Part shown: positions 6,673 through 61,592 of the stretch, piece by piece
How positions within the stretch are numbered: position 1 is the stretch's first letter
How the letters are laid out: every line of letters begins with the position of its first letter
From: a virus
Virus record (IMG/VR): IMGVR_UViG_3300012929_000002
Length of the DNA stretch: 61,592 nucleotides
Strand: one strand, 5' to 3'
The notes under the pieces: model-generated
What the model saw: the letters and a program-made list of their open reading frames with translations, nothing else
The model's database searches: none
What the model was told of the DNA's origin: nothing
Program-made: the position numbers and the translations under genes

Positions 6673-9600
6673 TGGCGTATACCTTCTTCTCGCCGCATAG
6701 TCACACCACCTTCTCGTACGGCGATGGATTCGGTACGCCGGAAGATCACGCCATGCGGCTGGTGGAGCTGGGCGCGCCGGGGGCAGTGTTAACCGAACAT
6801 GGCAACGTCAGCTCTCATGCCCAGTGGGAGAAGGCGTGCAACAAGCACGGGCTACACGCGGCCTTCGGGTGCGAGCTCTACACTGCTCCGCCCGGTGAGT
6901 TGAGCAAATGGCATCTTACCGCTATCGCCGAGACGGACGAGGGCTATCGGAATCTATGCCGGCTGGTTTCTCGGAGCTGGGCGGAAGGTTTCTACCGGTG
7001 GCCGACGACGCATAGCAACATGCTCTTGGATCATTCAGAAGGGATGATGATAACTAGTGGGTGTAGCGACAGTCTGCTCGCATGTACTCTACTTGGAGGT
7101 AAGTCGCTTGGCGAGAAGCGTGAGGCGGCGAGTTCCGAAGATATCGTACGAGCCGAGGGCGTTGTTCGGTGGTTCAGTAGTGTCTACGGTGACGGTTACT
7201 ACCTGGAGGTCCAGCGGTTCCCTGAGCTGGCGCGAACGCGGACTCTCAACAGAATATACGCTGAGCTTTCGCGGAGAACGGGTGTCCCACTTGTCGCAAC
7301 TGCGGACGTCCACTATCCGAAGCCAAACCAGAATGAAATGCAGAAAATCCTCCACGCCGCTCTCCGAGGCGGAGGCAAGACCGTTGAAGGAATCGAGCAG
7401 GAGTGGGAATACGACATTCGGCTTTCGTATCCTCTCTCGGATCGGCAAGTCGTGGGACAACTCGTTGCCACCGGCCTTACGCGGCGGCAAGCTCTCGGAG
7501 CCGTAGCCGCCAGCGCTGAGATAGGTCAGCGTGCGAAGGTTGTGCTCCCGAAGAACGAGCGCATCGTCTACCCGACCGAGCCGGGCCAGACAGTAGAAGA
7601 GATGATGTGGGAGTGGCTGCGCGACGGCTGGCGGTACCGCTGGAAGCAGAACGCGCACCTTCGAGCCGATCCGCAAGCCTATCATAATCAGCTCAAGTAC
7701 GAGTCGGGCATCGTGATTGATAAGAAGTATGTGTCATATTTCTTGATGATCTCGGAGGCTGTCCGGTGGGCCAAGGACCATGGTATTGCGGTCGGGCCAG
7801 CGCGCGGTAGCGCGGCGGCTAGTCTAATCTGCTATCTGCTACGCATCACCGAGGTGGACCCGCTCCAATTCCCGCACATGATGTTTGAAAGGTTCCTAGA
7901 TGTCAGCAGAGACGACTTCCCGGATATCGATCTGGACTTCGCGGATGACCGACGCGATGAACTCCGCCAGCACCTGGTTGAAGTTTGGGGCGCAGATCGC
8001 GTCGGCAATATCGGAAACTTTGTCCGATATCGCGGCAAAAACTCCATCGACGACGTCGCCCGGGTATACCGGGTCCCAAAGTGGGCCGCCGAAAAAGTCA
8101 AGTCCCTCATCCTCGACCGCTCCGGCGGTGACGCCCGGCAGAGTGACAGCCTCGCGGACACGTTCGACTTCTTCCCGACAGCCAAGGCCATCGTCGAGCA
8201 GTTCCCGGCGCTCCGGCACGCCATAGATTTGGAGGGCGGCTACCGGGGCATGTCGGTACACGCGGCCGGCCTGGTGGTCAGCAGTACCCCCATTAGCGAT
8301 ACGTGTGCCCTCTACACTCGCGAGATGCACGGCAAACCGGTAACTGTGCTGGCCTACGACAAGAAGTCCGCCGAGCAGGTCGGCATGTTGAAGGTGGATC
8401 TGCTAGGGCTCAGTACTATGTCGATGATCGCACGGGCACTAGAGATTATCGGAATGAGCTTGGAGGAACTGTATACCATCCCGCTGGATGATCCAAAGAC
8501 TCTGGCATCCTTTAAGAATACGGATGTGGTCGGGATTTTTCAGTTTGAAGGTCGCGCTCAGCGCGTCATCACTAAGGATGTCAGCCCGGATAACTTCCTG
8601 CATCTTGCGGACATAAACGCTCTGAGTCGGCCGGGGCCGCTCTTCAGCGGAGTAGCGGCGGAGTACGTTGCACGCAAGCACGGTCGCCATGAGATCGAGA
8701 GCCTGCATCCAATCGTTGACAGGGTGACGGACTTCACATACGGTACCATCGTTTATCAGGAGCAGGTTCTCACAATCATCAAAGAAATCGGAGGCTTTCC
8801 GGTCGCCAAGGTCGGGGACATCCGCCGCATTATCTCTCAGAAGTTGGGGGAGGCAAGTATGAACAATATGCGGCAGGAGTTCCAGAGCGGAGCGCGGCGC
8901 CTTCACGGCATAAAAGAAAATCTTTCGGGCCGCATCTGGCGGCAGATGGTGACAAGTGCCAACTACAGCTTCAACATAGCGCATTGCATCTCCTATAGTA
9001 TGCTCGGGTTTTGGTGCATGTGGCTCAAGGTACACCACCCACTAGCCTTCTATGCCGCTCAACTCGCCAAGGTAAACGACGATAAGCGTCCGCGCCTCAT
9101 GAAAGACGCTATGGATCATCACATTTCCATTCTTCCGCCGCACCCCGCTCGGAGCGGTCTGACGTGGACGCCGGTAAGATCGAAGAGCGCCGTTAGAGCC
9201 GGCTTGACGCAGATGCCGGGCATCGCCGTCAAGAAAGGCGAGGCGATGCTGCTAGAGCGCAAGGCTATCCTAGATAACGCGAAGAAGACGTTGGCTCCAG
9301 GACATCATGTATCGGATATAGCGCCCTGGAAGTGGGACGATTATCTTGCGGTCCGCGGTATCGGCAAGAAGACGATCGAAAAGATGAAGGCGTTTGCGGC
9401 CGATCCAGACCCGTTCGGACTGTTGCGGGTGCGCACCACCCTGGAGAACTACCGGGCCGGCATACGGGGCCGGCGCGCAGGCTACCGGGGGCTACCTACG
9501 CCCACCCACACCAGCGGCAGTATGCCCGACGGTGCGATAGAAGAAGTTGTGTGGATGGGATTCTGCCTTAGTAAGAACTATCAGAACGCGGTGGAGAAGG

Positions 9601-9935
9601 AGCGTACTCGCTCCGGCCGGGACGAGGCCGAAATTATTAAGGAGCTCAAGGATCCGCACTTGCTCGATAGTTGTGTGTTGCGCTGTTACGACGACGGCCC
9701 GGAGGATGTATATCTCAGGATTAACCGTTGGTCGTTTCCGCCCTTGGCGGAAGCGCTGGAGGAGATAGTTCCTAACGAAGATATCGTAATGTGTGTCGGA
9801 TATAAGAGAGAGAACGACTTCGGAGTGTCGCTACAGGTTAACGATCTCATCGTAGTAGCGCCGGACGAAGAAGAAATAGGGATAGATTACGTCAAGGAGG
9901 AAGAGGATGTCGAGCTCGAAGAGGCTGTCGGATAA
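6672..9935 (+). CDS. dnaE: DNA polymerase III alpha subunit (DnaE-type, PHP domain)
   Basis: PHP motif HSHTTFSYGDG, GPARGSAAASLICYLLRITEVDP and FERFLDVSRDDFPDIDLDF. 1087 aa. Confidence 0.93.
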   Translation: MAYTFFSPHSHTTFSYGDGFGTPEDHAMRLVELGAPGAVLTEHGNVSSHAQWEKACNKHGLHAAFGCELYTAPPGELSKWHLTAIAETDEGYRNLCRLVSRSWAEGFYRWPTTHSNMLLDHSEGMMITSGCSDSLLACTLLGGKSLGEKREAASSEDIVRAEGVVRWFSSVYGDGYYLEVQRFPELARTRTLNRIYAELSRRTGVPLVATADVHYPKPNQNEMQKILHAALRGGGKTVEGIEQEWEYDIRLSYPLSDRQVVGQLVATGLTRRQALGAVAASAEIGQRAKVVLPKNERIVYPTEPGQTVEEMMWEWLRDGWRYRWKQNAHLRADPQAYHNQLKYESGIVIDKKYVSYFLMISEAVRWAKDHGIAVGPARGSAAASLICYLLRITEVDPLQFPHMMFERFLDVSRDDFPDIDLDFADDRRDELRQHLVEVWGADRVGNIGNFVRYRGKNSIDDVARVYRVPKWAAEKVKSLILDRSGGDARQSDSLADTFDFFPTAKAIVEQFPALRHAIDLEGGYRGMSVHAAGLVVSSTPISDTCALYTREMHGKPVTVLAYDKKSAEQVGMLKVDLLGLSTMSMIARALEIIGMSLEELYTIPLDDPKTLASFKNTDVVGIFQFEGRAQRVITKDVSPDNFLHLADINALSRPGPLFSGVAAEYVARKHGRHEIESLHPIVDRVTDFTYGTIVYQEQVLTIIKEIGGFPVAKVGDIRRIISQKLGEASMNNMRQEFQSGARRLHGIKENLSGRIWRQMVTSANYSFNIAHCISYSMLGFWCMWLKVHHPLAFYAAQLAKVNDDKRPRLMKDAMDHHISILPPHPARSGLTWTPVRSKSAVRAGLTQMPGIAVKKGEAMLLERKAILDNAKKTLAPGHHVSDIAPWKWDDYLAVRGIGKKTIEKMKAFAADPDPFGLLRVRTTLENYRAGIRGRRAGYRGLPTPTHTSGSMPDGAIEEVVWMGFCLSKNYQNAVEKERTRSGRDEAEIIKELKDPHLLDSCVLRCYDDGPEDVYLRINRWSFPPLAEALEEIVPNEDIVMCVGYKRENDFGVSLQVNDLIVVAPDEEEIGIDYVKEEEDVELEEAVG

Positions 9936-10347
9936 GAAGGAGTTCTTCACGCTCTCGGACATTAACGAATGGGTGGCGGAGGCTTATCGTATGGGAATGC
10001 CGCCAGACGCCATCGTTCGGGCCAACGTTACTTTCCGTGGTCGTATCCGGGAGATCTGGGCAAGTGATCAGGAGAAGGCTCCGACGCTCAAATTGTCCGA
10101 GCATCGAGCGAGCTGTCACGGCCCCATCGGAGAACTTCAGTGTGGCGGTCACCATTACTGGGAGGAGGACGCTAAGCAAGAAGCGTCATATCCGGAAGGT
10201 TCTCAGGACACCGAACCGCCAGCTCCCTACTATATACCGCGTCAACAGCTCACGCCCAACGGCCCGTTGCATGGCGGCTTTACTGTCGTTGAGGGTAAGC
10301 CCGGTGCGGAAACCCTGTCAGAACGACCGACGCACGAGGACGAGTGA
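9907..10347 (+). CDS. Hypothetical protein (146 aa)
   Basis: Track ORF with AAGGAGGAAGAGG before the ATG. Overlaps the dnaE 3' end by 29 nt. Confidence 0.5.
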   Translation: MSSSKRLSDKKEFFTLSDINEWVAEAYRMGMPPDAIVRANVTFRGRIREIWASDQEKAPTLKLSEHRASCHGPIGELQCGGHHYWEEDAKQEASYPEGSQDTEPPAPYYIPRQQLTPNGPLHGGFTVVEGKPGAETLSERPTHEDE

Positions 10348-10544
10348 TGACAGCTCATATTCCTAATCCTAGCGGTGTTTCCGCCGGGCAGTTGTTCCGT
10401 ATCCTTACCGCCGAGCAGCGAAGAATTATTGTTCAGGCCTTTGTGCAGGCATCGGAGGTGGTGATCAATCTAAATCAGGGCCAGCTCCCGGAAGGGTATC
10501 TGGAGACGGCGCAGGAAATTAGACGCAATTGGAACGGCAAATGA
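10344..10544 (+). CDS. Hypothetical protein (66 aa)
   Basis: Track ORF. Start overlaps the upstream stop (GTGATGA). Confidence 0.5.
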   Translation: MMTAHIPNPSGVSAGQLFRILTAEQRRIIVQAFVQASEVVINLNQGQLPEGYLETAQEIRRNWNGK

Positions 10545-10621
10545 TCAAGTATTGGGTAACGGTGCTGGTAGTGGTACTTGCGTGCGCGGGTACCGCCGGG
10601 GTAGGGTACTTAATGGGTTAA
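10541..10621 (+). CDS. Hydrophobic micro-ORF (26 aa, MIKYWVTVLVVVLACAGTAGVGYLMG)
   Basis: ATGA overlap with the upstream stop and a single TM-like stretch. Below the track size cutoff. The TAGGGTAC motif lies inside it. Confidence 0.3.
   Translation: MIKYWVTVLVVVLACAGTAGVGYLMG
10598..10609 (+). promoter_or_regulatory. GGGGTAGGGTAC promoter-like motif, preceded by the TGCGCGGGTACC half-operator (10583-10594)
   Basis: Motif copy 36 nt upstream of the 10642 start. The 12-nt half-site is identical to 48073-48084. Confidence 0.4.
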
Positions 10622-10641
10622 AGCCCAATTAGGAGGGCAAT

Positions 10642-11010
10642 ATGGAGCAATTATTCTATATCGCGGGCCCGATATTTGGCAAGGGGATGGATCTCAATCT
10701 TCCCGAATTTGAACGAGTGGCCCGATTGGCAAAGCTCAAACTGGGATGCCGTACTCTTATTCCGCACAATATTGAGCCATATGGCCATGCCGGCAAGTGT
10801 CCGCCCGGGCGGCAGACCGAGGCCGAACAGCACGCGGCACCTTGTCATATGCGAGCGGATATCCGAGCTATGCTCATGTGCGACGGCATCATACTATTGC
10901 CGGGGTGGCAGACGAGCCAAGGTGCTCAGTTAGAGATGCAGGTGGCTTCGGCCTGCGGCCTTTCAGTATATCAGGCCGGTCATTTGGATACGCTAGCTCA
11001 AATCTGTTAG
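10642..11010 (+). CDS. DUF4406 / nucleoside 2-deoxyribosyltransferase-like protein
   Basis: FYIAGPIFG...CDGIILLPGWQTSQGAQLEMQVASACGLSVY matches the YIAGP...GW.xSxGAxxE pattern of that family. AGGAGGG RBS. Confidence 0.55.
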   Translation: MEQLFYIAGPIFGKGMDLNLPEFERVARLAKLKLGCRTLIPHNIEPYGHAGKCPPGRQTEAEQHAAPCHMRADIRAMLMCDGIILLPGWQTSQGAQLEMQVASACGLSVYQAGHLDTLAQIC

Positions 11011-11018
11011 GAGGGCTA

Positions 11019-11099
11019 ATGTTGTGGAGAGTGCTAGTAGTGGCAGCGGTCGTGGCGATAATCGTCGCAATCGGCCTGGCTCGCGGATTTATTCACTAG
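11019..11099 (+). CDS. Hydrophobic micro-ORF (26 aa, MLWRVLVVAAVVAIIVAIGLARGFIH)
   Basis: AGGAGGG (11010-11016) precedes the ATG. Single TM-like stretch. In frame with the tail of track ORF 10797..11099. Confidence 0.4.
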   Translation: MLWRVLVVAAVVAIIVAIGLARGFIH

Positions 11100-11401
11100 A
11101 CGATCTACCGACGATAGCTCGGGACATTCTGGCTCGTTTAGCGCAAGCTGGATTCGATGTAGATAACGAACAGCCGCGCCAGATTATGTGTGTCGCGGAA
11201 GAGGCCGGAGAATTCGTCGGGGCGTGGCGCAGGTATTACGGCTGGGCGCGGCGGAGCGGCACGAAGGGCGATATGGCCAGTGAACTGGCCGACCTTATCA
11301 TTGTGACTTTTATTGCGGCCGAAGTTACTGATATTGATGTTATGGCCGCCCTGGAGTCAAAGTTAGAGAAAATCTACACGAGAGGATGGAAAGATGCTTG
11401 A
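11024..11401 (+). CDS. MazG-like nucleoside triphosphate pyrophosphohydrolase
   Basis: EEAGEFVGAW (EExxE) and ELADLIIVTF (ExxD) motifs. The start is uncertain because the 5' end overlaps the micro-ORF. Confidence 0.6.
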   Translation: MESASSGSGRGDNRRNRPGSRIYSLDDLPTIARDILARLAQAGFDVDNEQPRQIMCVAEEAGEFVGAWRRYYGWARRSGTKGDMASELADLIIVTFIAAEVTDIDVMAALESKLEKIYTRGWKDA

Positions 11402-11723
11402 CGAAGTTAAGAAGGAGATCGATCAGAAGTTCTCGGAAGGGGATTTGACCCGAGCTATCTTCATCGCTGGGGGATTCTTTAGTGCCTGCTGGACGGGGAA
11501 GCAAGAGGGCCGGTTCGACAACGAAAACGCCGAGGCTATGGCGGACTTTCTGTCCGAACGCATTAACGCTCATGTCCGGCGCGAGATCCAGCGAGGATTG
11601 TCGGGAGTTCAGGTAGACGCGCATATCGTCAAGACGGGGCTATCCGGCCCGACTACGGACCCACACAGTGCGGGGAGCGGTCGGCACAATCCCGAGGCAG
11701 AACATCGAGGTTCCGAGAGATGA
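11394..11723 (+). CDS. Hypothetical protein (109 aa)
   Basis: Track ORF that overlaps the upstream 3' end. Confidence 0.55.
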   Translation: MLDEVKKEIDQKFSEGDLTRAIFIAGGFFSACWTGKQEGRFDNENAEAMADFLSERINAHVRREIQRGLSGVQVDAHIVKTGLSGPTTDPHSAGSGRHNPEAEHRGSER

Positions 11724-12079
11724 CGCAGATCGGTAATCCTCTATACGACTACCCGGACCCAGTAGCCGTAATCCCACGAAATGGAGTTACGGTGAATAAG
11801 AATCTTCAGGACAGAATGACGGTTCTCGAGGTCGCCGTCGGTACGGCTATGTGGGCGCACGGCAAAGTAAAGATCCCTCGAGATGCGCTAACTCGAACAT
11901 GTCTTGACCTGCTCGGAATGTTCGGGGATGAGCGCTGTAATCTGCTCAGCAGCACTACCTACGGGCAGTTCTACAGCGGACAGGTAGGAACGCCACATAC
12001 AGTTCACATGCCCGCCGCTGATCAGGTGGCGAAGATGGCTCCGGGTCCGGAAGAATACAAGGACGGAAACTGCGTCTAG
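11720..12079 (+). CDS. Hypothetical protein (119 aa)
   Basis: Track ORF with ATGA stop-start overlap. Confidence 0.55.
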   Translation: MTQIGNPLYDYPDPVAVIPRNGVTVNKNLQDRMTVLEVAVGTAMWAHGKVKIPRDALTRTCLDLLGMFGDERCNLLSSTTYGQFYSGQVGTPHTVHMPAADQVAKMAPGPEEYKDGNCV

Positions 12080-12091
12080 AAAAGTTGGGCG

Positions 12092-12111
12092 GGCAGCCCT
12101 CCGGGGCTGCC
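12092..12111 (+). terminator. Hairpin terminator candidate (GGCAGCCC-tccg-GGGCTGCC, then TTGCCTT)
   Basis: 8-bp GC stem and a tetraloop, 13 nt after the stop at 12079. Confidence 0.55.
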
Positions 12112-12136
12112 TTGCCTTAGAAAGAAGGGAGAATCA

Positions 12137-12691
12137 GTGGTTAAGGTAAGGCGTCACGCTACCGGAGCGTCTCTTTCCAATCCGAATAACGCCCCTATGG
12201 ACACTCCTAAATCCCGAGGTCAGGATAAGAAGAAGGCTCGAGAGCCTCGACACGAAGGACCGACCCTAGACCCGCTGGTAGCGGCACGAGTGCTACGCGC
12301 TGTGCTAGCCGATCATGCGTTCCGCAAGGCCAGTGGCTACGTGCCCGACCCCGCTACCGGCTATACCGATGTAGCCGCCCAGACGCTCAATATTATCGAC
12401 GCCCTAGGACTTAAGATTCCGGGATTTGTTACTGTCGTAGAGCCTAACGGCGGTGGTGTTGCGCATGTCCCGCGAGATCAGTGGGATGTTTGGCAAGGAG
12501 AGCTTTATCAGGCTAATCTCCGACGCATCCGACGCAGAGAAATGGAGCGAGGCGAGGTTCTAACCGAGGAAGAAATCGCCCGTCTAGCCGGTACTCGGAT
12601 AGAAGACGACGCAGTACTGCGCGAAAACGTTAGTGAATGGATAGAGCGCCTCCGAGCCGGCGCCGAAACTTGGGAGGAAGAAGATGAGTGA
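12137..12691 (+). CDS. Hypothetical protein (184 aa)
   Basis: Track ORF with a GTG start after AAGGGAG. Confidence 0.55.
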   Translation: MVKVRRHATGASLSNPNNAPMDTPKSRGQDKKKAREPRHEGPTLDPLVAARVLRAVLADHAFRKASGYVPDPATGYTDVAAQTLNIIDALGLKIPGFVTVVEPNGGGVAHVPRDQWDVWQGELYQANLRRIRRREMERGEVLTEEEIARLAGTRIEDDAVLRENVSEWIERLRAGAETWEEEDE

Positions 12692-14069
12692 AGATCGGTG
12701 GGCGCACGTTAAGCCAGTGCTATGTGAGCACATTACGGCCAATCACGTGGCGCACGAGTGGAACGACGCAGACGGCTTGCGCAAGAAGTGTCCCGGGAGG
12801 CAGGATATTCCTTTCGACGCCTATCCCGGACACGTCGAGTCGAGCGGGCAGGACGTCTACTCCGCCCCGCTGATCGAGGTGGGCAAGACGATACAGCGCT
12901 GGGCGGATAACGCGATGTTCAGTGCCGCACCGCTGGACAAGGAAGAAGGTCCGAAAGTCTACCTGCTCAGCATGACGCCGGATCCGCTAGGCACTATCGC
13001 GGCGGTCAATCAGATGTACGTCGGCAAGCCGGTGCGCAGCCTGGCGGACGTGACCGACAACGAGCGGCGCGAGCACTGGCAGCGCGTCATTAAGACCCGC
13101 CTCAAGGCGCCGTTCGAGTTCGTCAAGTTCCACTTCATGATCGAGGGAGTGACGCGTGCCTTCACTCACCAGATGGTCCGCCAGAGGACTGCGACGTTCG
13201 CTCAGGAAAGCTTGCGTTTCGCTGTTGTTGAAGATGATTTCACTAGCCGAGTGGCTCTACCGCCAAGCCTAGCCGGCACCACCGGAGAAATGTTCCAGGA
13301 GCGTGCTCGCATTGTCAAGAAGTACAGACAGCTCACGCGTTACGGAGACGACCACGGCACTCAGGTTCCGCATCCCAGCTGGACTGAGTGGCAGGAGTTC
13401 ACGGCGCGCTGTAGCGAAATGGAGCGCAAGCGGTACCGTTGGGACCTTGCGCTGGAAAAGGCGCAGGACAGTTACTCGCAGATGATAGAAGACGGTATGC
13501 CCGCCGAGGACGCGCGAGGGCTACTGCCGACCAATATCCTCACGCGGCTGCACTACACGACGGACCTGCGGGCTCTGCTGGAGCACGCCGGCAACCGATT
13601 GTGTACTCAGGCTCAGTTCGAGTGGCGGCTGGTCTGGGCTCGGATGATCGAGGCGATCCGAGACTACCGGGGCATCTATCGCGCCGACGTCTCGGGAGAG
13701 CTAGGTGGTCCTCCTGGGACAACAACGCGAACCCGGTCTAGCGACTGGCAGCAGGAGGAGATCTCTAAGCTGTTCAAGCCGATCTGCTATCAGACCGGCA
13801 AGTGCGAGTTCATGTCTCCGGACGACAGGGCGTGTTCAATTCGGGCTCGCGTACAGGTCAATGCTGAAATCGGTCGAAAGCCCGAACAGTGGGCAGAGGA
13901 ATATGATGAAGTTGAGGGAAATCCTATCATGTCCGGCTTTGGTCCACAGAGCGTCGTTCGAGAGCACACCGGTAAGCCCGTATTCATTGGAGCTATTAAA
14001 CCGGTCGAGTGGCTAGCGGACCCGACGGCGGCTAGGCGCGATGGGGGTGGACACATTGGCCGCTCTTAA
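12684..14069 (+). CDS. thyX: ThyX-like flavin-dependent thymidylate synthase, atypically long (461 aa)
   Basis: ThyX signature with His->Gln: VRQRTATFAQES (RHRx7S pattern). Also LRALLEHAGNRLCTQAQFEWR (the AQxEIR region). Confidence 0.7.
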   Translation: MSEDRWAHVKPVLCEHITANHVAHEWNDADGLRKKCPGRQDIPFDAYPGHVESSGQDVYSAPLIEVGKTIQRWADNAMFSAAPLDKEEGPKVYLLSMTPDPLGTIAAVNQMYVGKPVRSLADVTDNERREHWQRVIKTRLKAPFEFVKFHFMIEGVTRAFTHQMVRQRTATFAQESLRFAVVEDDFTSRVALPPSLAGTTGEMFQERARIVKKYRQLTRYGDDHGTQVPHPSWTEWQEFTARCSEMERKRYRWDLALEKAQDSYSQMIEDGMPAEDARGLLPTNILTRLHYTTDLRALLEHAGNRLCTQAQFEWRLVWARMIEAIRDYRGIYRADVSGELGGPPGTTTRTRSSDWQQEEISKLFKPICYQTGKCEFMSPDDRACSIRARVQVNAEIGRKPEQWAEEYDEVEGNPIMSGFGPQSVVREHTGKPVFIGAIKPVEWLADPTAARRDGGGHIGRS

Positions 14070-16059: not shown

Positions 16060-16216
16060 TCGCAGAGATTTTGCGAAAAGCGACGGACCTATCAGATCAG
16101 TAATCTGTTATCTGGTATGGCTACTGGCTGTCACAATGATAGGAGTAGTGGCCGTCGCGGAGCTAATTAAGCGCAGGTTCAAAGCGATCACCGCAGGTAG
16201 AAAAGCCGGCGCGTAA
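16052..16216 (+). CDS. Small membrane protein (54 aa)
   Basis: ATG overlaps the upstream 3' end. Central TM stretch VICYLVWLLAVTMIGVVAVAELI. Below the track cutoff. Confidence 0.4.
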   Translation: MPDRRDFAKSDGPIRSVICYLVWLLAVTMIGVVAVAELIKRRFKAITAGRKAGA

Positions 16217-16238
16217 ACTGGTACGCCTAAACGCAAAA

Positions 16239-16264
16239 CCCCCGGTGGTGTGGTTCACCGGGGG
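16239..16264 (+). terminator. Hairpin (CCCCCGGTG-8 nt-CACCGGGGG)
   Basis: 9-bp GC stem after the 16216 stop. An A-run lies upstream but no T-run downstream, so terminator function is uncertain. Confidence 0.4.
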
Positions 16265-16527
16265 TGAGCGTCCCGCCGACGAGCAGGAGTTGGAACGTGC
16301 CCCAGTATACCAGGCGTTGCTGTATTCATCCTGATCATACTCTCTGTAAGTTCCCGCGAGTGACAGGTAAAGAAGGAACGGAAGGGGCAGGAAGTGGCGC
16401 TTGTTGCCTACACTGGGAAGGTCAGAAATGCCCTTGGGATCCTTGGGCACTAGACGAGAGTGACCTGCCTGATAGAAATCACTGGGATAGAGTTCAGAAG
16501 GCTGTTGAAAAGGCTATGAGGGCATGA
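16264..16527 (+). CDS. Doubtful ORF (87 aa, Cys/Trp-rich)
   Basis: Track ORF with ATGA coupling to the primase gene at its 3' end, but no convincing RBS and odd composition. Confidence 0.3.
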   Translation: MSVPPTSRSWNVPQYTRRCCIHPDHTLCKFPRVTGKEGTEGAGSGACCLHWEGQKCPWDPWALDESDLPDRNHWDRVQKAVEKAMRA

Positions 16528-19010
16528 GCGGGAGCGTTCCTACGCTGGGACCTCGAGAGCCGTGGCGACACGCCGCGCTCATATATCTGGAGGTCGGTTG
16601 GCTTCCTATCCCGATTCCGCCCGGCAAGAAGCATCCTGTTCCAGTTGGATACACTGGAAATGAAGCTAAGCGCATAACCCGTTCGGTTGTAGAAGAATGG
16701 TTCGCCGAACTACCGGATAATAGCAACATCGGAACAAGAATTCCGGATGCAATTATCGTTATAGACGTAGACGCGTATAGGAATGGCGTAGCGACGCTCA
16801 AGGCGCGCGAGAAGCAGTGGGGCGAACTACCCGACACCTGGCGTAATTCTGCCCGGAATGACGGCGCGGGTGGACACATGTTTTTCCGGCTACCCAAGAG
16901 CGCGCTAGGATTGCACTGGCCCGGTAAAATCGGCGATGGCGTTGAAATTCTTCAGCCGACACATCGCTATGCCGTGGTGTGGCCCAGTATCAATCCTTCT
17001 AATAACCAGATGTACCGTTGGTATCAGCCCGGCGATCCTACAGAAGGTCCTGGATACGCTGGAATTCCTAGCCTGAGCGACATCAGAACTGAGATGCCAG
17101 CGCGTTGGATCAAGGCTCTCACTAACGGCGAGGCCTATCACTACATGCCCAAGAAGAAGGGCGTTAGTGAGGCGGCCGTAATCACTTGGCTCAAAGAACA
17201 GCGCACGGGAGAGCCGTGCACGCGTATGCGCCGTGCGATGCAACAGGCTACCAAGACGGTGGGCCCGGATGGCGGACACGATAGCGCCCTGTTTAGCGTC
17301 TACAACATCATCATGGGTGCGCAGGAAGGGCATATCGGTATCTATCAGGCTCTTTCCTATGTTAAGAACCTCCTGATAGAAGACATTACCGATGACAGTC
17401 GCCCCGGATCCGTACGCACATTGCAAGACGCGGAAGAAGAATGGAACAGAATGCGGGACGGTGCCGTGCGCACCGCCATGCAGCGTGTAATAGATTCTCC
17501 TGAAATGGTAGGGTCTCGTTGTCGTTGTTTGATAGAGGAAGTGGACGGACTATATCGTCCTCCGCCCGGGACGCGCACCGATCAGCAACACGCCCGTCAG
17601 GTTATTAGCTGGGTGAGCGACCAGGCCCGCTACGCCAAGGACGGTGCCGTCTGGGTGATTAAGGATGATGAGCGTTGGATAGCCGACCCTAGCGTTAATT
17701 CTCAGGGCGTGGTGGCTCTGGTGGCGGATAACATGCCCTTTGGGGAAGATCCGGAAGATGTTGAGGCAGACGACGAAGGTTGGAAGCCCGAATACTCTGA
17801 GTGGAAACTCCGCGAGAGATACGAGACCGCCAAGACGATGGGTGGCATAGCGGCCAAGGTGCAGGCCCTGGTCACAACTCGGCGCAGTAGTGATCCGTAT
17901 GTCGTTAACTTGCACGATCTGGACAAAGACCCGGACATCTTGTGGACTCCTAACGGCCCGGTGGATCTGCGCGGAGAAGAGGGAAAATCCCGCAATTCGG
18001 ATGAGAAGATAGATCCCGGCGCGGTGCACCTGCACTGTACCCGGTACAGCCCGTTGGCTGGCCCGGTGCCGGCCTGGCAGGCCCTATGTGCGGCCGTGTG
18101 GCCCGACCCCGCCGTGCGCGCCTGGGCGTTGCAACTGTTGGCCGTGGGGCTTACCGGCTACAGCCCCAAAATGTTCCTGCACTTCTACGGAGAGAAAGAT
18201 CGAGGCAAGACAAGTATTCCCACTTTGGTCGCGGATTTGCTCGGCAGTTACGCTCGTAGTGACTTGCAAGCCACCCTTATTGCGACAGATGCACAGCCGT
18301 GGGATCGCGCGGCATTGCACGGCCTCCGCTTCGGCTTCGTGGATGAAACCCCCGATCCTAGACCTCGTCCTACCGAGGAACTAAAGAAGCTAACCGGCGG
18401 GGCCGAGATTAACGCGGCCTATAAAAATAAACAGCCTTTTAAGTTTGATCCGACGCACACTCTGGTATTCGCCAGTAATCCCGAACCTAACCTGACCGAT
18501 CCGGCGGTGGTGGCGCGTATTAGGATGTTGCCGTGCACCGGTAGCATCAAGGGTATTCGTAGTGCGCGGGCTAAAATCGGCGAACTTCGAGGGCGGATTT
18601 GGCAGCAAGAGGCTCCCGGCGTGTTGTGGCAATTGTTAGAACTCGCCAAGCAATATGTCTCTAATAATGACGTAATAGCTCTGGAGAACGCTCCCGTTGT
18701 GGTCCGCCGGGCAGCCGCGGAGTTGCGGCAAGACCAGGATGTTTTGGGCGAGTGGCTCGATATGCACGCGCATACTGTGTCGCGTAACAAGCCGGAAGAG
18801 TGGCGTACGGTGCAGGAATTATACGATGGTTTCGCTAAATGGTGTGGGCAGAATTCTAGGACGAAGTGGTTTTTAGGCGGTAAAGATACGCGATGGTTGG
18901 GGAATCAACTTCGGAGTCGTAAGATGAATTCTGGTTATTTGTCTCGCCGCAGTAATAGTAAAACCTACTGGAATGTGGACTTTCTTCCTTCTGGATTAAA
19001 GGTTCGTTGA
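16524..19010 (+). CDS. Bifunctional Prim-Pol primase / P4-D5-type helicase
   Basis: N-terminus LPIPIPPGKKHPVPVGYTG and IVIDVDAY (Prim-Pol). C-terminus has Walker A YGEKDRGKTS and Walker B FGFVDETP. 828 aa. Confidence 0.8.
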   Translation: MSGSVPTLGPREPWRHAALIYLEVGWLPIPIPPGKKHPVPVGYTGNEAKRITRSVVEEWFAELPDNSNIGTRIPDAIIVIDVDAYRNGVATLKAREKQWGELPDTWRNSARNDGAGGHMFFRLPKSALGLHWPGKIGDGVEILQPTHRYAVVWPSINPSNNQMYRWYQPGDPTEGPGYAGIPSLSDIRTEMPARWIKALTNGEAYHYMPKKKGVSEAAVITWLKEQRTGEPCTRMRRAMQQATKTVGPDGGHDSALFSVYNIIMGAQEGHIGIYQALSYVKNLLIEDITDDSRPGSVRTLQDAEEEWNRMRDGAVRTAMQRVIDSPEMVGSRCRCLIEEVDGLYRPPPGTRTDQQHARQVISWVSDQARYAKDGAVWVIKDDERWIADPSVNSQGVVALVADNMPFGEDPEDVEADDEGWKPEYSEWKLRERYETAKTMGGIAAKVQALVTTRRSSDPYVVNLHDLDKDPDILWTPNGPVDLRGEEGKSRNSDEKIDPGAVHLHCTRYSPLAGPVPAWQALCAAVWPDPAVRAWALQLLAVGLTGYSPKMFLHFYGEKDRGKTSIPTLVADLLGSYARSDLQATLIATDAQPWDRAALHGLRFGFVDETPDPRPRPTEELKKLTGGAEINAAYKNKQPFKFDPTHTLVFASNPEPNLTDPAVVARIRMLPCTGSIKGIRSARAKIGELRGRIWQQEAPGVLWQLLELAKQYVSNNDVIALENAPVVVRRAAAELRQDQDVLGEWLDMHAHTVSRNKPEEWRTVQELYDGFAKWCGQNSRTKWFLGGKDTRWLGNQLRSRKMNSGYLSRRSNSKTYWNVDFLPSGLKVR

Positions 19011-19029
19011 GGCTAATGAGGCGATGGAG

Positions 19030-19325
19030 CAGTGCATGTTGGCCGCCGCACATGCACTGTCACATGCACTGCCTTTATTGCATAAGCAAATCCAATTTGC
19101 ATTCGCACACAGGATTGGCCTGGGATTTGCTTTTGTTAATAAAACAGTGCATGTGCAGTGCATGTGCAGTGCATGTCTACAGGCCACATGCACTGATGAA
19201 ACCGCAGGTAGAACGCCTAACAGTGCATCAGTGCATGTAAACGTTAGGTAGTAGCAGCATTATGTGTGTGGGTGCAGGCACACGGGAAGAGGTAAAACTT
19301 CCGAAACACATGCACTGATGCACTG
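19030..19325. repeat. Array of 11 CAGTGCATG/CATGCACTG 9-mers flanking an A+T-rich patch (candidate replication origin)
   Basis: Forward copies at 19030, 19145, 19156, 19167, 19221 (8/9) and 19229. Reverse copies at 19051, 19063, 19187, 19309 and 19318 (8/9). No credible ORF in the stretch. Confidence 0.85.
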
Positions 19326-19462
19326 GTTAGCTAGGCTAACGATATTATGGAAGGTGGTGAATCCTCTTGTTAACAAGTGGTGAAAGGAGTATGATTTGGG
19401 ATGAGGACCGGTAAAGAAGTAGGAAGGATGAATAGGATGTCTGACTGGTTTAACGGAAGGAG

Positions 19463-19675
19463 ATGGGACTGATGGCGACGAAGATTGTGCCGAGTGAACC
19501 GGGGCCGAGTGAGTTTAGTTGGGGGAAGGGGATTATGCAACCTCTGGCATCCCTCGCGACAGGGATTCCGAATGTGGAAAATCAGCTGAGGGCGTTGCAT
19601 CGACTGAACGAGGATCCGACGAATGTGATTGACACGGCAGAACCGGATTACACTTCGGATATTAGGGAGAAGTGA
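19463..19675 (+). CDS. Hypothetical protein (70 aa; alternative ATG at 19472)
   Basis: Track ORF with AAGGAG upstream. Confidence 0.5.
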   Translation: MGLMATKIVPSEPGPSEFSWGKGIMQPLASLATGIPNVENQLRALHRLNEDPTNVIDTAEPDYTSDIREK

Positions 19676-19984: not shown

Positions 19985-20680
19985 GTGCCCAACTACATCG
20001 ACCAGGGGGATTTTAGTAAGGGAGAGCGGGCGCGCTCCTCTCGGGGCGGAGCGGTGCGCAAGTTCCTGAAGGATAATCCCGTCTATTGCGGACACGACTA
20101 TCAAGAGGACGACCCGACCGTTCCGGACGAGGAGTCGTTGTGTGCGAAGAAGGCGGTTCGCTATACCGACCCTCCGCGCTGCACCGAGCACGGCGGAGTC
20201 GCAGCCGAGTTCAGTCGTAAGCGCACTGAAGCGGGATACGTCCGGGTTAATCCTAAGATGGCTGCGATACTCCGAGGCGACATGGACGTCGCTGACCTTG
20301 ACGACGAAGAGCTGGCTCGCGGTGAACTCCGGGGTAAGGACGGAAAGTTTCATAGAGGACCGCGGATGGTTCCGCGAGATATGTATACCCGGATGATGAA
20401 CGAATTGTTTAAACGTGCCAACGAACAGATGAAGACGAACCTGGTCGATGCAGTGAAGGTACTGACGGCGATAGCGACTGATCCAGACGCAGATCCCAAG
20501 GATGCGATGAAGGCGGCTCAGTGGTTGATTGAACGGGTGATGGGGAAGACGCCCGAGAACGTCATCGTCACTCAGGACAAGCCGTGGCAATCCCTTCTCG
20601 TTAACGTCACTACGGACAATCCTCAGGATTACGAAGCTTTCGTCAACGAGCAGGGAAAAGAAGACGACGACAGGTTCTGA
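19985..20680 (+). CDS. Possible small terminase subunit
   Basis: GGAGG then GTG. C-terminal KDAMKAAQWLIERVMGKTPE resembles the ...AAxxLLDRGxGKP motif I recall from actinophage TerS proteins. Lies upstream of TerL. Confidence 0.35.
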   Translation: MPNYIDQGDFSKGERARSSRGGAVRKFLKDNPVYCGHDYQEDDPTVPDEESLCAKKAVRYTDPPRCTEHGGVAAEFSRKRTEAGYVRVNPKMAAILRGDMDVADLDDEELARGELRGKDGKFHRGPRMVPRDMYTRMMNELFKRANEQMKTNLVDAVKVLTAIATDPDADPKDAMKAAQWLIERVMGKTPENVIVTQDKPWQSLLVNVTTDNPQDYEAFVNEQGKEDDDRF

Positions 20681-21259: not shown

Positions 21260-21595
21260 ATGGCAGCGACCCCAGTAGCACTAATCACGGTTACCCGTAG
21301 CGGAGTTGTGAACACCACTCCGCTAGCTTGTGACAATGTCAACGGCAACGTCGTAAACGGCAACGGCGGCGGAGTATTCCTGGAGTTCAAGAACACCGAC
21401 ACCGTTAGTCACACCGTTACTGTTGCCATTCCCGGCACATTCGACGGCGTGGCGCATTCCGGTAAGCCTTGCGTCATCCCGGCTAGCGTTACCTGGAAAT
21501 TCGGTCCATTCGGCAATGCAACGTATGGACAGAACCTTACATTTACTGCGGATAGTGCGTTGGTGCAGTACGCCGCGTACCAGCTCGGGACATGA
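21260..21595 (+). CDS. Hypothetical beta-rich protein (111 aa) coupled to TerL
   Basis: Track ORF. The stop overlaps the TerL start (ATGA). Gly/Asn/Val/Thr-rich sequence. Confidence 0.55.
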   Translation: MAATPVALITVTRSGVVNTTPLACDNVNGNVVNGNGGGVFLEFKNTDTVSHTVTVAIPGTFDGVAHSGKPCVIPASVTWKFGPFGNATYGQNLTFTADSALVQYAAYQLGT

Positions 21596-23217
21596 CGACG
21601 GGGCACGCCACTCTGAGCAAGTGGGACGTCTTCCGCTTGTGCGGGTGGCGCGCCCATCGTCTACAGAGGGGCATAATCAGTAGCCCACAGCGGGCGCGTG
21701 TTGTTTCAGCCGGAAGGCGTCTTGGGAAGAGCGAGATCGGCGGGCACGAGCTTGTTGTAGAGGCATTGGCGACGGCGCCGCAGGCGGATATATTAAAAGA
21801 GGAAGGCAAGAGGCGTGAGTTCTGGGTTATTGGGCCGGAATACACGGATAGCGAGAAAGAGTTCCGGGTGTTGTGGAATAGCCTCAGTAAGATGGAGGTT
21901 CCATTTGATAGACCCGGCAGTTATAACGATCCTATCGGCGGTAGCCTGCACCTTTCACTATGGGGCGGAGCTTTTCAAGTACACGGGAAATCGGCTAAGC
22001 ACCCGGAGACGCTAGTCGGCGAAGGACTTAGCGGAGTAGTGTTGGCGGAAGCCGCCAAGCTAAAGCACCGCGTGTGGACAAAGTTTGTGCGCCCCATGCT
22101 GGCGGACTATCACGGCTGGGCGTTGATGACCAGTACGCCCGAGGGAAAAAACTGGTTTTACGAGGCGTGGCAAAACGGCCAGAATCCGGGAATGAGCGAG
22201 TGGTCTAGTTTCCGGGCGCCCAGCTGGCGGAATCCATATGTATATCGCACGCCCACTACTGATGCGGACGTAAAGTATCTGCAACAGCTTATGACACAGG
22301 TGGTCGGGAATAGGAGGCGCACTGCGGAAGAACTAGTCCGCATGTTTGAGCTAACTATTGATGACGAGATAGTGTCGCTACTGGACGATCTTACTGAAGA
22401 AGCGTTCAATCAGGAAATAGGTGCGGATTTCACTGAGTTCGTGGGGCGGGTATTCAAGGAGTTTGACGAAGAGGACCACGTAAAGGATTTAGAGTTTAAT
22501 CCGCGCTGGAAGACGGTAGCCTGTACCGACTACGGCTTCACTAATCCTAATGTCTGGCTGTTGATACAAATAGGTCCATGGAATGAAGTGCATGTCCTGG
22601 ATGAAGTATACGAACGCGGATTAACCTCTGACGAGTTCGCTAAGGAGATAGTGAGTCGCGGACTGTGTCCCTTTGGCCTCACCACCTTTTACCCGGACCC
22701 AGAAGATCCCGGCAGCACTAAAACCCTTGAAAAGATTCTTCACGTGACCAGTAGCGGTGGCACGGGCGGAGAGTTATTTGACAGACTTCAGCATATTAGG
22801 GAAGCTTTGCGCCTCATGCCAGAACACCTGGAAGATGGCCATCCCGAGAAATCGCCAACGTTGCGGATAAATCGTCGCTGTGTAAATCTGATTCGTGAGA
22901 TGCAGGATTATCGCTACCCGGACACAAAAGAAGAAGCCGGTAATACGCACGAAAAGCCCTTAAAGAAAGACGACCATACGCCCGAGGCGCTCGGTCGCTT
23001 CTTCGCGGGTTACTTCGGTAAGCCGACTCTGCGTGGCGGGACGCGCGTGCATAAGGCAAACTTGGGGCGTCGCAGCGTTAAGCCGGACGATGGCGTAACA
23101 ATTAACGCAGACGGCACTCTGCGCTATCCCTACGGCGGACCGCCCGTTCACGGTATGATTGCAGGCCAGCGCGCCACACCGGAGCAGCTAAGCCGCACAG
23201 TAAAGAGGAACTGGTAA
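21592..23217 (+). CDS. Terminase large subunit
   Basis: Walker A-like GRRLGKSEIG, LMTSTPEGKNWFYEAW, and size and position ahead of the portal. Confidence 0.85.
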   Translation: MTTGHATLSKWDVFRLCGWRAHRLQRGIISSPQRARVVSAGRRLGKSEIGGHELVVEALATAPQADILKEEGKRREFWVIGPEYTDSEKEFRVLWNSLSKMEVPFDRPGSYNDPIGGSLHLSLWGGAFQVHGKSAKHPETLVGEGLSGVVLAEAAKLKHRVWTKFVRPMLADYHGWALMTSTPEGKNWFYEAWQNGQNPGMSEWSSFRAPSWRNPYVYRTPTTDADVKYLQQLMTQVVGNRRRTAEELVRMFELTIDDEIVSLLDDLTEEAFNQEIGADFTEFVGRVFKEFDEEDHVKDLEFNPRWKTVACTDYGFTNPNVWLLIQIGPWNEVHVLDEVYERGLTSDEFAKEIVSRGLCPFGLTTFYPDPEDPGSTKTLEKILHVTSSGGTGGELFDRLQHIREALRLMPEHLEDGHPEKSPTLRINRRCVNLIREMQDYRYPDTKEEAGNTHEKPLKKDDHTPEALGRFFAGYFGKPTLRGGTRVHKANLGRRSVKPDDGVTINADGTLRYPYGGPPVHGMIAGQRATPEQLSRTVKRNW

Positions 23218-23254: not shown

Positions 23255-24922
23255 GTGACTACTCCCAATCCGACCGCCATATTCAATCAGTACAGTAACG
23301 CGAAGATCTTCTTTAGCACCTCCGTTCCAAACTGGATCGGCGCCAATAAGGAAGACCAGGATCGTGTCCGGGCTTATATGTTCTATGAGCGGCTGTACTG
23401 GAACGTTCCCGATACGCTGGCTATTGTCGAGCGCGGAGAAGATAGCCTTCCCATTTATCTTCCTTCAGCCCGGAAGATGGTTGAGGCCTGCAATCGGTTC
23501 CTGTGTGTTGACTGGGACTACAGCATTACGAGCACGGCCGGTAGTGCCAGTGATCAGGCGCAGTGCAAGGTGTTGATGGACGGGTTGTTCAAGAATCAGA
23601 AGATGAAGGCGAAGTTCGCCCGGCAGAAGCGGTACGGTCTTATCAGGGGAGATGCCGTCTGGCATGTGCGGGCGGACGCTAATCGGCCGGCCGGCAGTCG
23701 CATCGACATCTATGAAGTAGATCCCACGAATGCGTTCCCTATTCTGGAGGATCTTAATCCGGATAGGATTATCGGATGGCATCTTATCGACCTAGTGCCC
23801 GACCCGCGTGATGTTACCAAGCAAGTGGTGCGTCGTCAGACATACACCAAGGCGACAGGCGATTACTTTGGCCCTAGTATCATCATGTCCAGCATCGGCT
23901 ATTACGAGCTAGGTAAATGGGACGACAGGAAGACGGCTACTAACGCCAATCCCGAGGTAGCCATGGTTCCGTGGGAGGGGGAGATATTGCCCTTCGAGCT
24001 GCCGACGGACATCACATACCTTCCGGTTTATCTAATCCCCAATCAGAAGCAGCCGTGTCAGACTTTCGGTAGTAGCGAGGTGCGGGGAATAGAGACTGTT
24101 ATCGCTAGCGTCAATCAGTCCGTGAGCGATCAGGACCTCACTCTTGCGATGCAGGGATTGGGAGTGTATACCTCCACGGCCGGGCCGCCGGTAGCCGCCG
24201 ACGGGACAGCAGGAACATTCGATATCGGTCCTGGAAGAGTTGTTGAGGTTCCAGCCGACGCTACATTCTCCAGAGTGAGCGGAGTAGGAGCTAGCCTGCC
24301 CGGAATTGAACACATGAATTTTATTCTTGGAGAAACACAGTCTGCCGTAGGCATCCCAGATATTGCGGCCGGCATTGTTGACGTCTCCGTCGCGGAAAGT
24401 GGCATCGCGCTCCAATTGCAACTCAGTCCTCTTCTTTCTCATAACAAGGAGAAGGAGACGGATATGATGGACGAGTACAACTGCATGTTCCGGGATTTGG
24501 TGGAGGGCTGGTTTCCGGCGTACGAAGGATTTGGTTCTAACACGGGTGTAGAGGTCACGATGATAACGGGCAATCCTGTACCCCAGGATAGAGCGGCCCG
24601 ATTTAAGGAGATTGTTGAATTGGTGCAAGCCGTCCCGCCGCTGATGTCTACTCGTACCGCGATTGATGAGCTAAATAAGATCGGGTACGACATGCCGAAG
24701 GACGAGTTGGATCAACTCACTCAGGAGGCACAAGCCCGAGCGCAGACAATGCAATTGGATCCGTTTGCTCAGCGTGCCCTGGGAGAGTTTGCTGCTCCGG
24801 TTAACTCGGCGGGCAATGCGGTGCCCCCTTCCACGCTGCCTGTAGCTCCGCCTAAGCCGATCAACGGTCTATCCGGGGGTGCTGGCGCTGCCGGGGGCCC
24901 TAAACCAGCCACAGGGCACTAG
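23255..24922 (+). CDS. Portal protein
   Basis: 555 aa directly after TerL. Called from gene order and size. No motif verified. Confidence 0.7.
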   Translation: MTTPNPTAIFNQYSNAKIFFSTSVPNWIGANKEDQDRVRAYMFYERLYWNVPDTLAIVERGEDSLPIYLPSARKMVEACNRFLCVDWDYSITSTAGSASDQAQCKVLMDGLFKNQKMKAKFARQKRYGLIRGDAVWHVRADANRPAGSRIDIYEVDPTNAFPILEDLNPDRIIGWHLIDLVPDPRDVTKQVVRRQTYTKATGDYFGPSIIMSSIGYYELGKWDDRKTATNANPEVAMVPWEGEILPFELPTDITYLPVYLIPNQKQPCQTFGSSEVRGIETVIASVNQSVSDQDLTLAMQGLGVYTSTAGPPVAADGTAGTFDIGPGRVVEVPADATFSRVSGVGASLPGIEHMNFILGETQSAVGIPDIAAGIVDVSVAESGIALQLQLSPLLSHNKEKETDMMDEYNCMFRDLVEGWFPAYEGFGSNTGVEVTMITGNPVPQDRAARFKEIVELVQAVPPLMSTRTAIDELNKIGYDMPKDELDQLTQEAQARAQTMQLDPFAQRALGEFAAPVNSAGNAVPPSTLPVAPPKPINGLSGGAGAAGGPKPATGH

Positions 24923-48396: not shown

Positions 48397-48407
48397 GGGT
48401 AGGGTAC
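48397..48407 (+). promoter_or_regulatory. GGGTAGGGTAC motif preceded by TTGCCAAGTG
   Basis: Composite TTGCCAAGTG-cagcag-GGGTAGGGTAC. Confidence 0.4.
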
Positions 48408-48545
48408 GGTGGCACCACAACAGCAACACCGCAGGGGTTAGCCCAGCAGCCTGGCAACGGGCGTGGCTGGCAAGTTTAGGCCAACGGCAAGGCGTTAGGC
48501 GCAGCTAAGGCAAAAACTGCCCAAAATCACGGGGTTTGCCAAGTG

Positions 48546-48556
48546 GGGTAGGGTAC
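48546..48556 (+). promoter_or_regulatory. GGGTAGGGTAC motif preceded by TTGCCAAGTG
   Basis: Composite TTGCCAAGTG-GGGTAGGGTAC, with the same 10-mer as at 48382-48391. Confidence 0.4.
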
Positions 48557-48603
48557 ATGGTACGGTTTTACCAGGCACCAACCGGCAGGCAAACGGGCCA
48601 GCC

Positions 48604-48614
48604 GGGTAGGGTAC
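48604..48614 (+). promoter_or_regulatory. GGGTAGGGTAC motif 21 nt upstream of the 48633 start
   Basis: Followed by AAGGGG (SD) and an ATG. Confidence 0.45.
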
Positions 48615-61483: not shown

Positions 61484-61592
61484 GCTCCCCGTCAGAACTC
61501 GGCTGAGTCGGAAGCGGTCTCCCTCCGGGATGTTTCCGGGAAGCGGGCGCTATACGGCAGTAGTCCGGACGGACGGGGCGCACGATCCGAAG
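61470..61592. repeat. Terminal direct repeat, right copy (identical to 1..123)
   Basis: Same 123-nt string as 1-123. The stop codon of CDS 60953..61483 lies inside it. Confidence 0.95.

Follow-up and report, generated by a model that had tools for sequence, protein, structure and literature searches.

The Rep proteins of the SaPIs are self-loading SF3 helicases whose C-terminal winged helix recognizes iterons, and the SaPI origins carry 6-12 iterons directly downstream of rep, in opposed orientations and with an AT-rich center; the iteron specificity varies by element and matches the cognate Rep (PMC9371898). Short repeats are also bound by the C-terminal winged helix of P4 alpha, which has a Toprim-type primase, while ORF904 of pRN1 is built in the order Prim-Pol, SF3, winged helix and has its origin just downstream of orf904, as a stem-loop described as being without iterons; its primase is site-specific, with a GTG motif (PMC4234260). 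Here, we analyzed a dense array of a short repeat that directly follows a primase-helicase gene in IMG/VR virus record IMGVR_UViG_3300012929_000002 (61,592 nucleotides in full length, referred to as the window), and compared it with these systems and with the corresponding region of related phages. Because the relatives keep the layout of the repeats but exchange the motif along with the helicase's DNA-binding end, we consider it likely that 19030-19325 is the replication origin, or the main cis-acting replication element, of this phage and that it is read by the adjacent primase-helicase.

An iteron array directly follows the primase-helicase gene

The 9-mer CAGTGCATG occurs in nine exact copies, distributed over both strands, and all of them lie inside 19030-19317. 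Shuffling the sequence gave an expectation of 0.47 copies, and none of 100 shuffles reached nine. Two further copies with one mismatch (CAGTGCATC), at 19221(+) and 19317-19325(-), complete two double sites, which brings the total to 11 iterons, confined to 19030-19325, the first of them 20 nt past the helicase stop. Elsewhere in the genome, we found 12 one-mismatch matches against 12.8 expected, which corresponds to the chance level, and the iteron is the top clustered k-mer of the genome. As the exact copies all fall into one 296-bp stretch, there is a single iteron locus and no second locus of the ori or crr kind. These counts bear out the first-pass annotation of the window, which had reported a dense array after the primase-helicase gene and had taken the 9-mer as its unit. 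The 9-mer is indeed enriched and exclusive to the gap that follows the gene, but the conserved unit is longer, 10-11 nt with the sequence CAGTGCATGT(G), since CAGTGCATGT is found in all nine exact copies and CAGTGCATGTG in six. The copy positions reported there also stood, except that the one-mismatch copy on the minus strand starts at 19317 and not at 19318.

Counted from the helicase stop, with the sign giving the strand, the copies are located at +20, -40 and -52; at +135, +146 and +157; at -176; at +211 and +219; and at -298 and -306. At least two iterons stand on each side of an A+T-rich core and face each other in opposed orientations, 19050(-) and 19062(-) on one side and 19145(+), 19156(+) and 19167(+) on the other, where the exact 11-bp period noted earlier for this triple was confirmed. 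The A+T-rich patch singled out in the first-pass annotation contains 37% GC, whereas the genome has 56%, and a value as low as this is reached by just 0.2% of its 73-nt windows; the palindromic strings GCAAAT-cca-ATTTGC and CTTGTTAACAAG could both be read directly at the positions given in Table 1. The two double sites, 69 nt apart, had been described as perfect inverted partners, and we found that they are fully complementary over 18 nt rather than 17. In addition, a 33-nt imperfect inverted repeat (19061-19093/19123-19155) takes in part of the A+T core. As single-stranded DNA, the region is predicted to fold into two large stem-loops, with the A+T core at the apex of stem-loop A and the two double iterons as the arms of stem-loop B.

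The gap had been described as having no credible open reading frame (ORF). Stop-free frames of 75-77 aa do cross the array, and the gene caller on the source ENA contig placed a 71-aa ORF at 19036-19251, inside it. However, none of the stop-free stretches of the gap is conserved between lineages, and the 71-aa ORF is without a counterpart in the relatives, so the call is very probably spurious. The array region gave no match to cultured phages by megablast, an exact search of IMG/VR for the tandem repeat found none either, and scanning the window for Rfam families and tRNAs gave no hit.

The primase-helicase is homologous to initiators that bind iterons

The N terminus of the primase-helicase matches the Pfam Prim-Pol family PF09250 (AEP; 3e-22), and the protein also matches DUF5906, D5_N and phrog_1156 (4e-97). 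Its match to TIGR01613 has an E value of 8e-28, yet the 97.1 bits are below the curated cutoff of 108.7. Comparison of the helicase family profile with the PDB retrieved ASFV C962R (1e-33) and SaPI5 PriRep5 (7OLA, 6.6e-19), as well as poxvirus D5. The alignment to 7OLA (query 466-812 to chain 425-765) extends beyond the helicase core into the C-terminal domain (CTD), while the N-terminal half of the primase-helicase is unaligned in the comparison with PriRep5. P4 alpha was aligned by hhalign with a probability of 96.5% over 308 columns (query 475-795 to alpha 411-742, of 777), with the primase region not in the alignment.

The CTD is the part of the helicase that is most diverged between lineages. 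Its AF2 model, based on an alignment of 59 sequences collected by profile search, reached a pLDDT of 83.8 and shows the helix-helix-helix-beta-hairpin order of the winged-helix topology; an earlier model on 11 sequences (pLDDT 56) was discarded. The top Foldseek matches of the model are nearly all winged-helix DNA binders, none with E<=1e-3 and the best at about 0.08, and the winged-helix family to which the CTD would belong is very large, with >32,000 representative proteins. The origin-binding domain of P4 alpha was missed when a CTD profile was searched against the PDB, but P4 alpha could be aligned once the full-length profile was used in hhalign. The model predicts that the CTD is a DNA-binding domain of the winged-helix type, which would give the domain order Prim-Pol, SF3 helicase and C-terminal winged helix in one protein.

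Compared with SaPI Rep/PriRep5 (7OLA), the protein is an SF3 helicase that is homologous through the CTD, where a winged helix is predicted; its gene is directly followed, on the 3' side, by 11 iterons opposed around an AT-rich center, and the iteron sequence matches the cognate helicase, here by comparison only. In contrast to a SaPI, the element is no satellite: it is a complete tailed phage that encodes a polymerase and structural genes of its own and carries TerS, TerL and portal. Its iterons are 10-11 nt as compared to 5-6 nt, and the locus also has lineage-invariant elements and a further inverted iteron pair, the spacer of which is conserved at 69-71 nt. By this analogy, the array appears to work like a SaPI origin and yet is no SaPI, the element being a complete phage. 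With pRN1 ORF904, and the Bordetella phage BIP-1 proteins compared with it, the system shares the predicted domain order and the position of the proposed origin directly downstream of the gene. A large stem-loop is the key structure of the pRN1 origin, and large stem-loops are also predicted for the array, but here they would be built of iterons; the likeness is architectural. A further parallel is offered by lambdoid phages: there, too, the initiator O and the ori iterons are exchanged as a specificity cassette, which varies among phages that otherwise resemble each other. The lambda O protein, however, is no helicase, the iterons are located within its own gene, and it has no homology to the helicase described here.

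The P4 system had been named as the model in the first-pass annotation. This analogy holds for the homology of the helicase and CTD and for the iteron block directly 3' of the gene; it fails for the primase, which is Toprim-type in P4 and Prim-Pol here, and for the number of loci, as P4 needs two (ori and crr) compared to one in the window. Because of the Prim-Pol primase and the single iteron locus, SaPI Rep/ori and pRN1 ORF904 appear to be closer models than P4. The comparison with P4 is nevertheless the source of the most serious rival explanation, namely, that the array is a crr-like replication enhancer bound by the helicase, while synthesis starts elsewhere, as in P4. It is favored by the homology of helicase and CTD to P4 alpha and by the P4 record, in which crr, with ten 8-bp repeats in both orientations, lies directly downstream of the alpha gene, so that the iteron block in the corresponding position is crr and not ori. 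However, the P4 iterons occupy two loci, whereas the window has one, with near-matches elsewhere at the chance level, and this locus has its own A+T core between opposed iterons, as in the SaPI origins. We therefore regard a crr-like enhancer as unlikely.

Relatives keep the layout of the array and replace its motif

Relatives of the phage were reached through the protein database and found in Logan and ENA assemblies only, and each genome was fetched in part; peptide-word searches with the helicase and the small terminase (TerS) found no relatives among IMG/VR and JGI metagenome contigs. We found that syntenic uncultured relatives have a gap of 300-430 bp after the helicase gene, which holds a dense array of another short repeat: TGTGTCACTT in L001 and L002, CATGTCACTT in L020, TGCGTAGGGT in L021 and L022, CAAACACACTT in L006 and GGGGTACTA in L018. 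In shuffle tests with the arrays of five relatives (L001, L020, L021, and the more distant Terapin and L014), 0 of 100-200 shuffles reached the observed count. Thus, as regards the conservation of the 9-mer array in related phages, on which the first-pass annotation had set weight, the architecture is kept and the motif sequence is replaced in each lineage.

The similarity of layout extends to the individual copies. In L001, the offsets from the helicase stop are -(-17) and -7; +78, +90 and +102; -122; +167 and +177; and -256, -266 and -274. The window and L001 share the order of copies near the stop, an A+T-richer stretch, a tandem triple with an 11-12-bp period, an inverted copy 19-20 nt further on, a direct double, and finally an inverted double or triple 79 nt from the start of the last direct copy. 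The arrays of L020 and L021 are on the same plan, the triple followed by an inverted single is also present in L001 and L020, and the spacer of stem-loop B measures 69-71 nt in five motif classes (window, L001, L006, L020 and L021). Folded as single-stranded DNA, the L001 array region has z = -4.7. All copies have been replaced in concert while the layout was kept, which therefore points to a co-evolving, sequence-specific binding protein. As a separate observation, L021 has one more exact iteron, TGCGTAGGG, at 4078, inside the helicase gene and about 570 nt before its stop.

The motif co-varies with the helicase core and CTD

Compared as DNA, the window and its relatives are 70-88% identical in the flanks, with a gap in similarity at 16637-19470 that corresponds to the helicase gene plus the array. 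TerS shows identities of 88%, 87% and 85% among the window, L001 and L006, although the motifs of these three are unrelated, and its first 25 residues are 88-92% identical across lineages with unrelated motifs. The 67-aa late ORF is 76-81% identical across different motifs. The helicase of the window is 51% identical to that of L001 and 35% to that of L006. L001 and L002, which share a motif, have helicases that are 100% identical, with 79% identity for TerS and 50% for the ~100-aa late ORF; their DNA is 100% identical from ~9500 to 12764 (L001 coordinates), a stretch that includes a small ORF, the helicase gene and the array, and diverges directly after the array.

A comparison between lineages was possible with L001 and L020, in which the motifs TGTGTCACTT and CATGTCACTT are near-identical. 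The last 110 residues of their helicases are 58% identical, the highest cross-lineage identity of the CTD, and the helicase core is 74% identical, with 27% for Prim-Pol and 57% for TerS. By their Prim-Pol domains, the phages form two groups, in agreement with the backbone; by the helicase core, the window, L001, L020 and L021 come together although their backbones differ. Because Prim-Pol follows the backbone while the helicase core and CTD group otherwise, the pattern implies recombination within the primase-helicase gene, near the primase/helicase junction. On these identities, the motif follows the helicase core and CTD and not TerS, the small late ORFs or Prim-Pol, and among the candidate regulators compared, none co-varies with the motif except the helicase. 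The small ORF upstream of the helicase was also considered as the binder and rejected; it encodes 149 aa in L001 and ~76 aa in the window and is absent in L006 despite the array.

Arrays follow the helicase gene whatever lies downstream

The closest cultured relatives are distant, being Gordonia phages in which the helicase is 24-27% identical and TerL 59% identical. In Gordonia phage Terapin, a 238-bp gap past the primase/polymerase gene contains TTACGGYA at a 10-bp period around a ATATATATATA core, with four exact copies in each arm (eight in total), the second arm inverted, and more degenerate copies besides. The genes downstream of this array are unrelated hypothetical genes, far from the terminase. 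In Gordonia phage Gibbin (L016), an array of ACGGTACG follows the primase gene at a distance of 4.7 kb from one genome end, while the terminase is found at the other, and in L014 an array of GTCGTWC follows the homologous gene. Because the arrays follow the homologous gene whatever lies downstream, the array belongs with the helicase and not with the late operon.

This result bears on the alternative raised in the first-pass annotation, in which a phage transcription factor would bind the array as an operator or activator field and so control the late operon for packaging and structural genes. The operon had been placed at 19463, but the conserved ORF starts with the ATG at 19472 (MATKIVP...). 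It speaks for an operator that a promoter-like TTGTTA-17-TATGAT is found 40 nt downstream of the array, that this element (GAGTATGAT) is conserved in L001, L002 and L006, as is the leader block behind it, and that the last repeat abuts a -35-like hexamer in L001 and L006. However, the distance between array and promoter-like element varies from ~20 to 65 nt between lineages, with a called 102-aa ORF in between in L019; the arrays of Terapin, Gibbin and L014 follow the helicase gene without a late operon downstream; and promoter and leader are kept while the motif is replaced, so that the regulator would have changed and its target promoter would not. Moreover, neither small late ORF tracks the motif, and only the helicase co-varies with it. 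We consider an operator field improbable.

Another alternative, absent from the first-pass annotation, is that TerS binds the array as a recognition site for packaging (pac or cosB-like). A site upstream of a TerS homolog is typical for cos and pac, and phased repeats could wrap an oligomeric ring. Yet TerS is 85-88% identical over unrelated motifs and less so where the motif is shared, and the arrays of Terapin and Gibbin lie beside the helicase gene, far from the terminase. Furthermore, the records of the closest cultured TerL relatives start at base 1 of gene 1, and for actinophages this is the convention for circularly permuted genomes. A packaging site is thus very improbable. We judge equally improbable an array without a sequence-specific binder, in which hairpin formation by the inverted repeats, in DNA or RNA, would be all that matters, be it for a terminator or for a recombination hotspot: the predicted secondary structure is strong (z = -8.75) and the region lies at a mosaic boundary, but complementarity would suffice for hairpins, whereas the same 10-mer is reused 11 times, in tandem and inverted and with an 11-bp period, all copies are replaced in concert with order and orientation kept, which is the signature of a co-evolving binding protein, and a scan of the array region found no intrinsic terminator.

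Genome context and neighboring elements

The window carries an exact terminal direct repeat of 123 bp (1-123 and 61470-61592) and, because of it, is a circular assembly and probably a complete genome of ~61.47 kb. Nearly all genes are on the plus strand (Table 1 lists those discussed), and the genome also carries an exonuclease and Sak4. A scan of the 20 larger ORFs turned up no second initiator and neither a partition protein nor an integrase, so that no candidate competes with the primase-helicase among them.

Table 1. Positions of the array, its parts and the genes and elements discussed in the text (window coordinates).
Feature	Position	Strand	Remarks
DnaE-type Pol III alpha	6672-9935		
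ThyX	12684-14069		
Primase-helicase, 828 aa	16524-19010	+	Prim-Pol + D5_N + SF3 helicase
Helicase CTD, aa 693-828	18600-19007	+	Predicted winged helix, proposed iteron reader
Left iteron cluster	19030-19071		CAGTGCATGT at 19030(+), 19050(-), 19062(-)
A+T-rich core	19072-19144		Proposed unwinding element; holds GCAAAT-cca-ATTTGC (19086-19100)
Right iteron cluster	19145-19195		Tandem triple 19145, 19156, 19167 (+), 11-bp period; then inverted 19186(-)
ACCGCAGGTAGAA	19201-19213	+	Single-copy in the gap, invariant between lineages
Direct double iteron (stem-loop B, left arm)	19221-19238	+	CAGTGCATC + CAGTGCATGT
Spacer of stem-loop B, 69 nt	19239-19307		GT-rich core partly conserved, TTATGTGTGTGGG at 19260-19272
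Inverted double iteron (stem-loop B, right arm)	19308-19325	-	18 nt, 100% complementary to 19221-19238
Promoter-like TTGTTA-17-TATGAT	19367-19395	+	-35-like hexamer within palindrome CTTGTTAACAAG (19366-19377)
Conserved non-coding block GGACCGGTAAAGAAGTAGGAAGG	19406-19428	+	Near-invariant in window, L001, L002, L006
First conserved ORF past the array, 67 aa	19472-19675	+	MATKIVP...; followed by a ~100-aa ORF
TerS homolog	19985-20680		phrog_10899; ~0.7 kb downstream of the array
TerL	21592-23217		
Portal	23255-24922		

Two elements of the gap are shared between lineages irrespective of the iterons. The string GCAGGTAGAA is common to the gaps of the window, L001 (12641, inverted in the same slot), L006 (6421) and Gibbin (7361-7374), and the slot of ACCGCAGGTAGAA is taken by CCTTCTACCTGC in L020 and by CCCCAGGTAGAACC in L021. 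A second copy of ACCGCAGGTAGAA occurs at 16190-16202, within the conserved block upstream of the helicase described below. The element may serve as a site for priming or for a host factor, or it may mark a boundary of recombination. The center of the stem-loop B spacer has partly conserved GT-rich strings (TTATGTGTGTGGG, TAATGTGTGTAAAGGGG and TTTGTGTGTATATAAAGGGG) in the window, L001, L006, L018, L020 and L021, with any iteron class. To see in them a priming site, by analogy with the GTG motif of the pRN1 primase, would be pure speculation.

Upstream of the helicase cassette, a non-coding block of ~130 nt (16182-16312) is ~95% conserved in the window, L001 and L006, and thus more conserved than the adjacent coding DNA. 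On the plus strand, it ends with an AGGAG ribosome-binding site (RBS) and a GTG at 16297; in L006, this GTG is the start codon of the helicase, whereas in the window and L001 a small ORF begins with it. On the minus strand, we found a -10-like hexamer (TATACT, TATAAT or TAGAAT), an anti-Shine-Dalgarno CTCCT and an intrinsic terminator (16265->16238) with a TTTGCGTTT tail, the stem of which shows compensatory changes between lineages. These features suggest an antisense RNA of ~70 nt over the helicase translation start (16238-16309, minus strand); the candidate has no Rfam match.

On the other side of the array, the block at 19406-19428 is probably the 5' leader of the late operon with its RBS; we treated it as such and not as cos because the nearest cultured TerL relatives look circularly permuted. 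Only the window has an insertion of ~36-45 nt after GGACCGGTAAAGAAGTAGGAAGG, with a second RBS-like GGAAGGAG before the ATG at 19472 (19406-19471). A leftward promoter-like TTAACA-18-CATAAT (19344-19373, minus strand, 10/12 matches) overlaps the CTTGTTAACAAG palindrome and could drive transcription into the origin. Elsewhere in the window, GGGTAGGGTAC (one copy TGGTAGGGTAC) is present six times, always on the plus strand (1720, 10599, 48397, 48546, 48604 and 54071), and is apparently intergenic, for example, at 10599, at 54071 and in the 48397-48604 cluster. A -10 of the TANNNT type is the actinobacterial pattern, and since TAGGGT fits it, these sites are probably phage promoters.

Discussion

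The comparative evidence, that is, the conserved layout, the turnover of the motif and its co-variation with the helicase, supports the origin proposed in the first-pass annotation. Most likely, the array is an origin of the SaPI/P4/pRN1 type, bound by the adjacent self-loading helicase. From the likeness to these systems, we infer binding, melting, priming and the actual start site as follows. The CTD winged helix of the 828-aa Prim-Pol/SF3 helicase would recognize the 10-11-bp iterons CAGTGCATGT(G), and the opposed iterons that flank the 73-bp A+T core would nucleate two helicase hexamers. The hexamers would load themselves and melt the core, the Prim-Pol domain would lay the first primers, and the DnaE-type polymerase of the phage would extend them. 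Stem-loop B (19221-19325) and the two lineage-invariant elements would be parts of the same conserved architecture.

Several points weigh against an origin read by this helicase. The support for it is wholly computational and comparative. The block directly 3' of the alpha gene in P4 is crr, as discussed above. In L019, the array motif is unclear, and L015 has no array after its helicase gene. The Foldseek matches of the CTD are weak (E >=0.08), with 1KA8 and 7OLA outside the top 50. The cumulative GC skew rises monotonically without an inflection at the array, but it is uninformative here because all genes are on one strand. Since the genomes of the relatives were fetched in part, a co-varying DNA-binding protein might be encoded elsewhere in them. 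Last, linkage alone would co-inherit an array and its neighboring gene, so the block shared by L001 and L002 is no proof by itself; therefore, the comparison of L001 with L020 and the distant phages carry the argument.

A more elaborate arrangement is also conceivable, although doubtful, in which the locus is a composite replicon-control cassette made of the lineage-specific iterons, the invariant elements (ACCGCAGGTAGAA and the GT-rich core) and the ~70-nt antisense RNA. The swappable helicase core and CTD would then read the iterons, and a conserved partner would recognize the invariant elements, which might be a site for Prim-Pol priming or for a host factor. If this were true, near-identical lytic phages that circulate together would gain plasmid-like replication "incompatibility groups," and the position of the array beside the late promoter might couple origin firing to late transcription.

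The array would be a known class of origin in a new phage lineage, and one literature search for such arrays in actinobacteriophages found no description of them. The analysis places the likely replication origin of a lineage of uncultured phages that are related to actinobacteriophages, and Terapin and Gibbin probably have theirs in the corresponding position. On one conserved scaffold, these phages display six or more iteron classes, and every class goes with a helicase CTD of its own; this is a natural experiment on how the winged-helix family reads DNA, in which initiator-origin specificity cassettes are exchanged within one gene, apart from the primase domain. Such origins mark mosaic boundaries and could serve to build phage-derived replicons.

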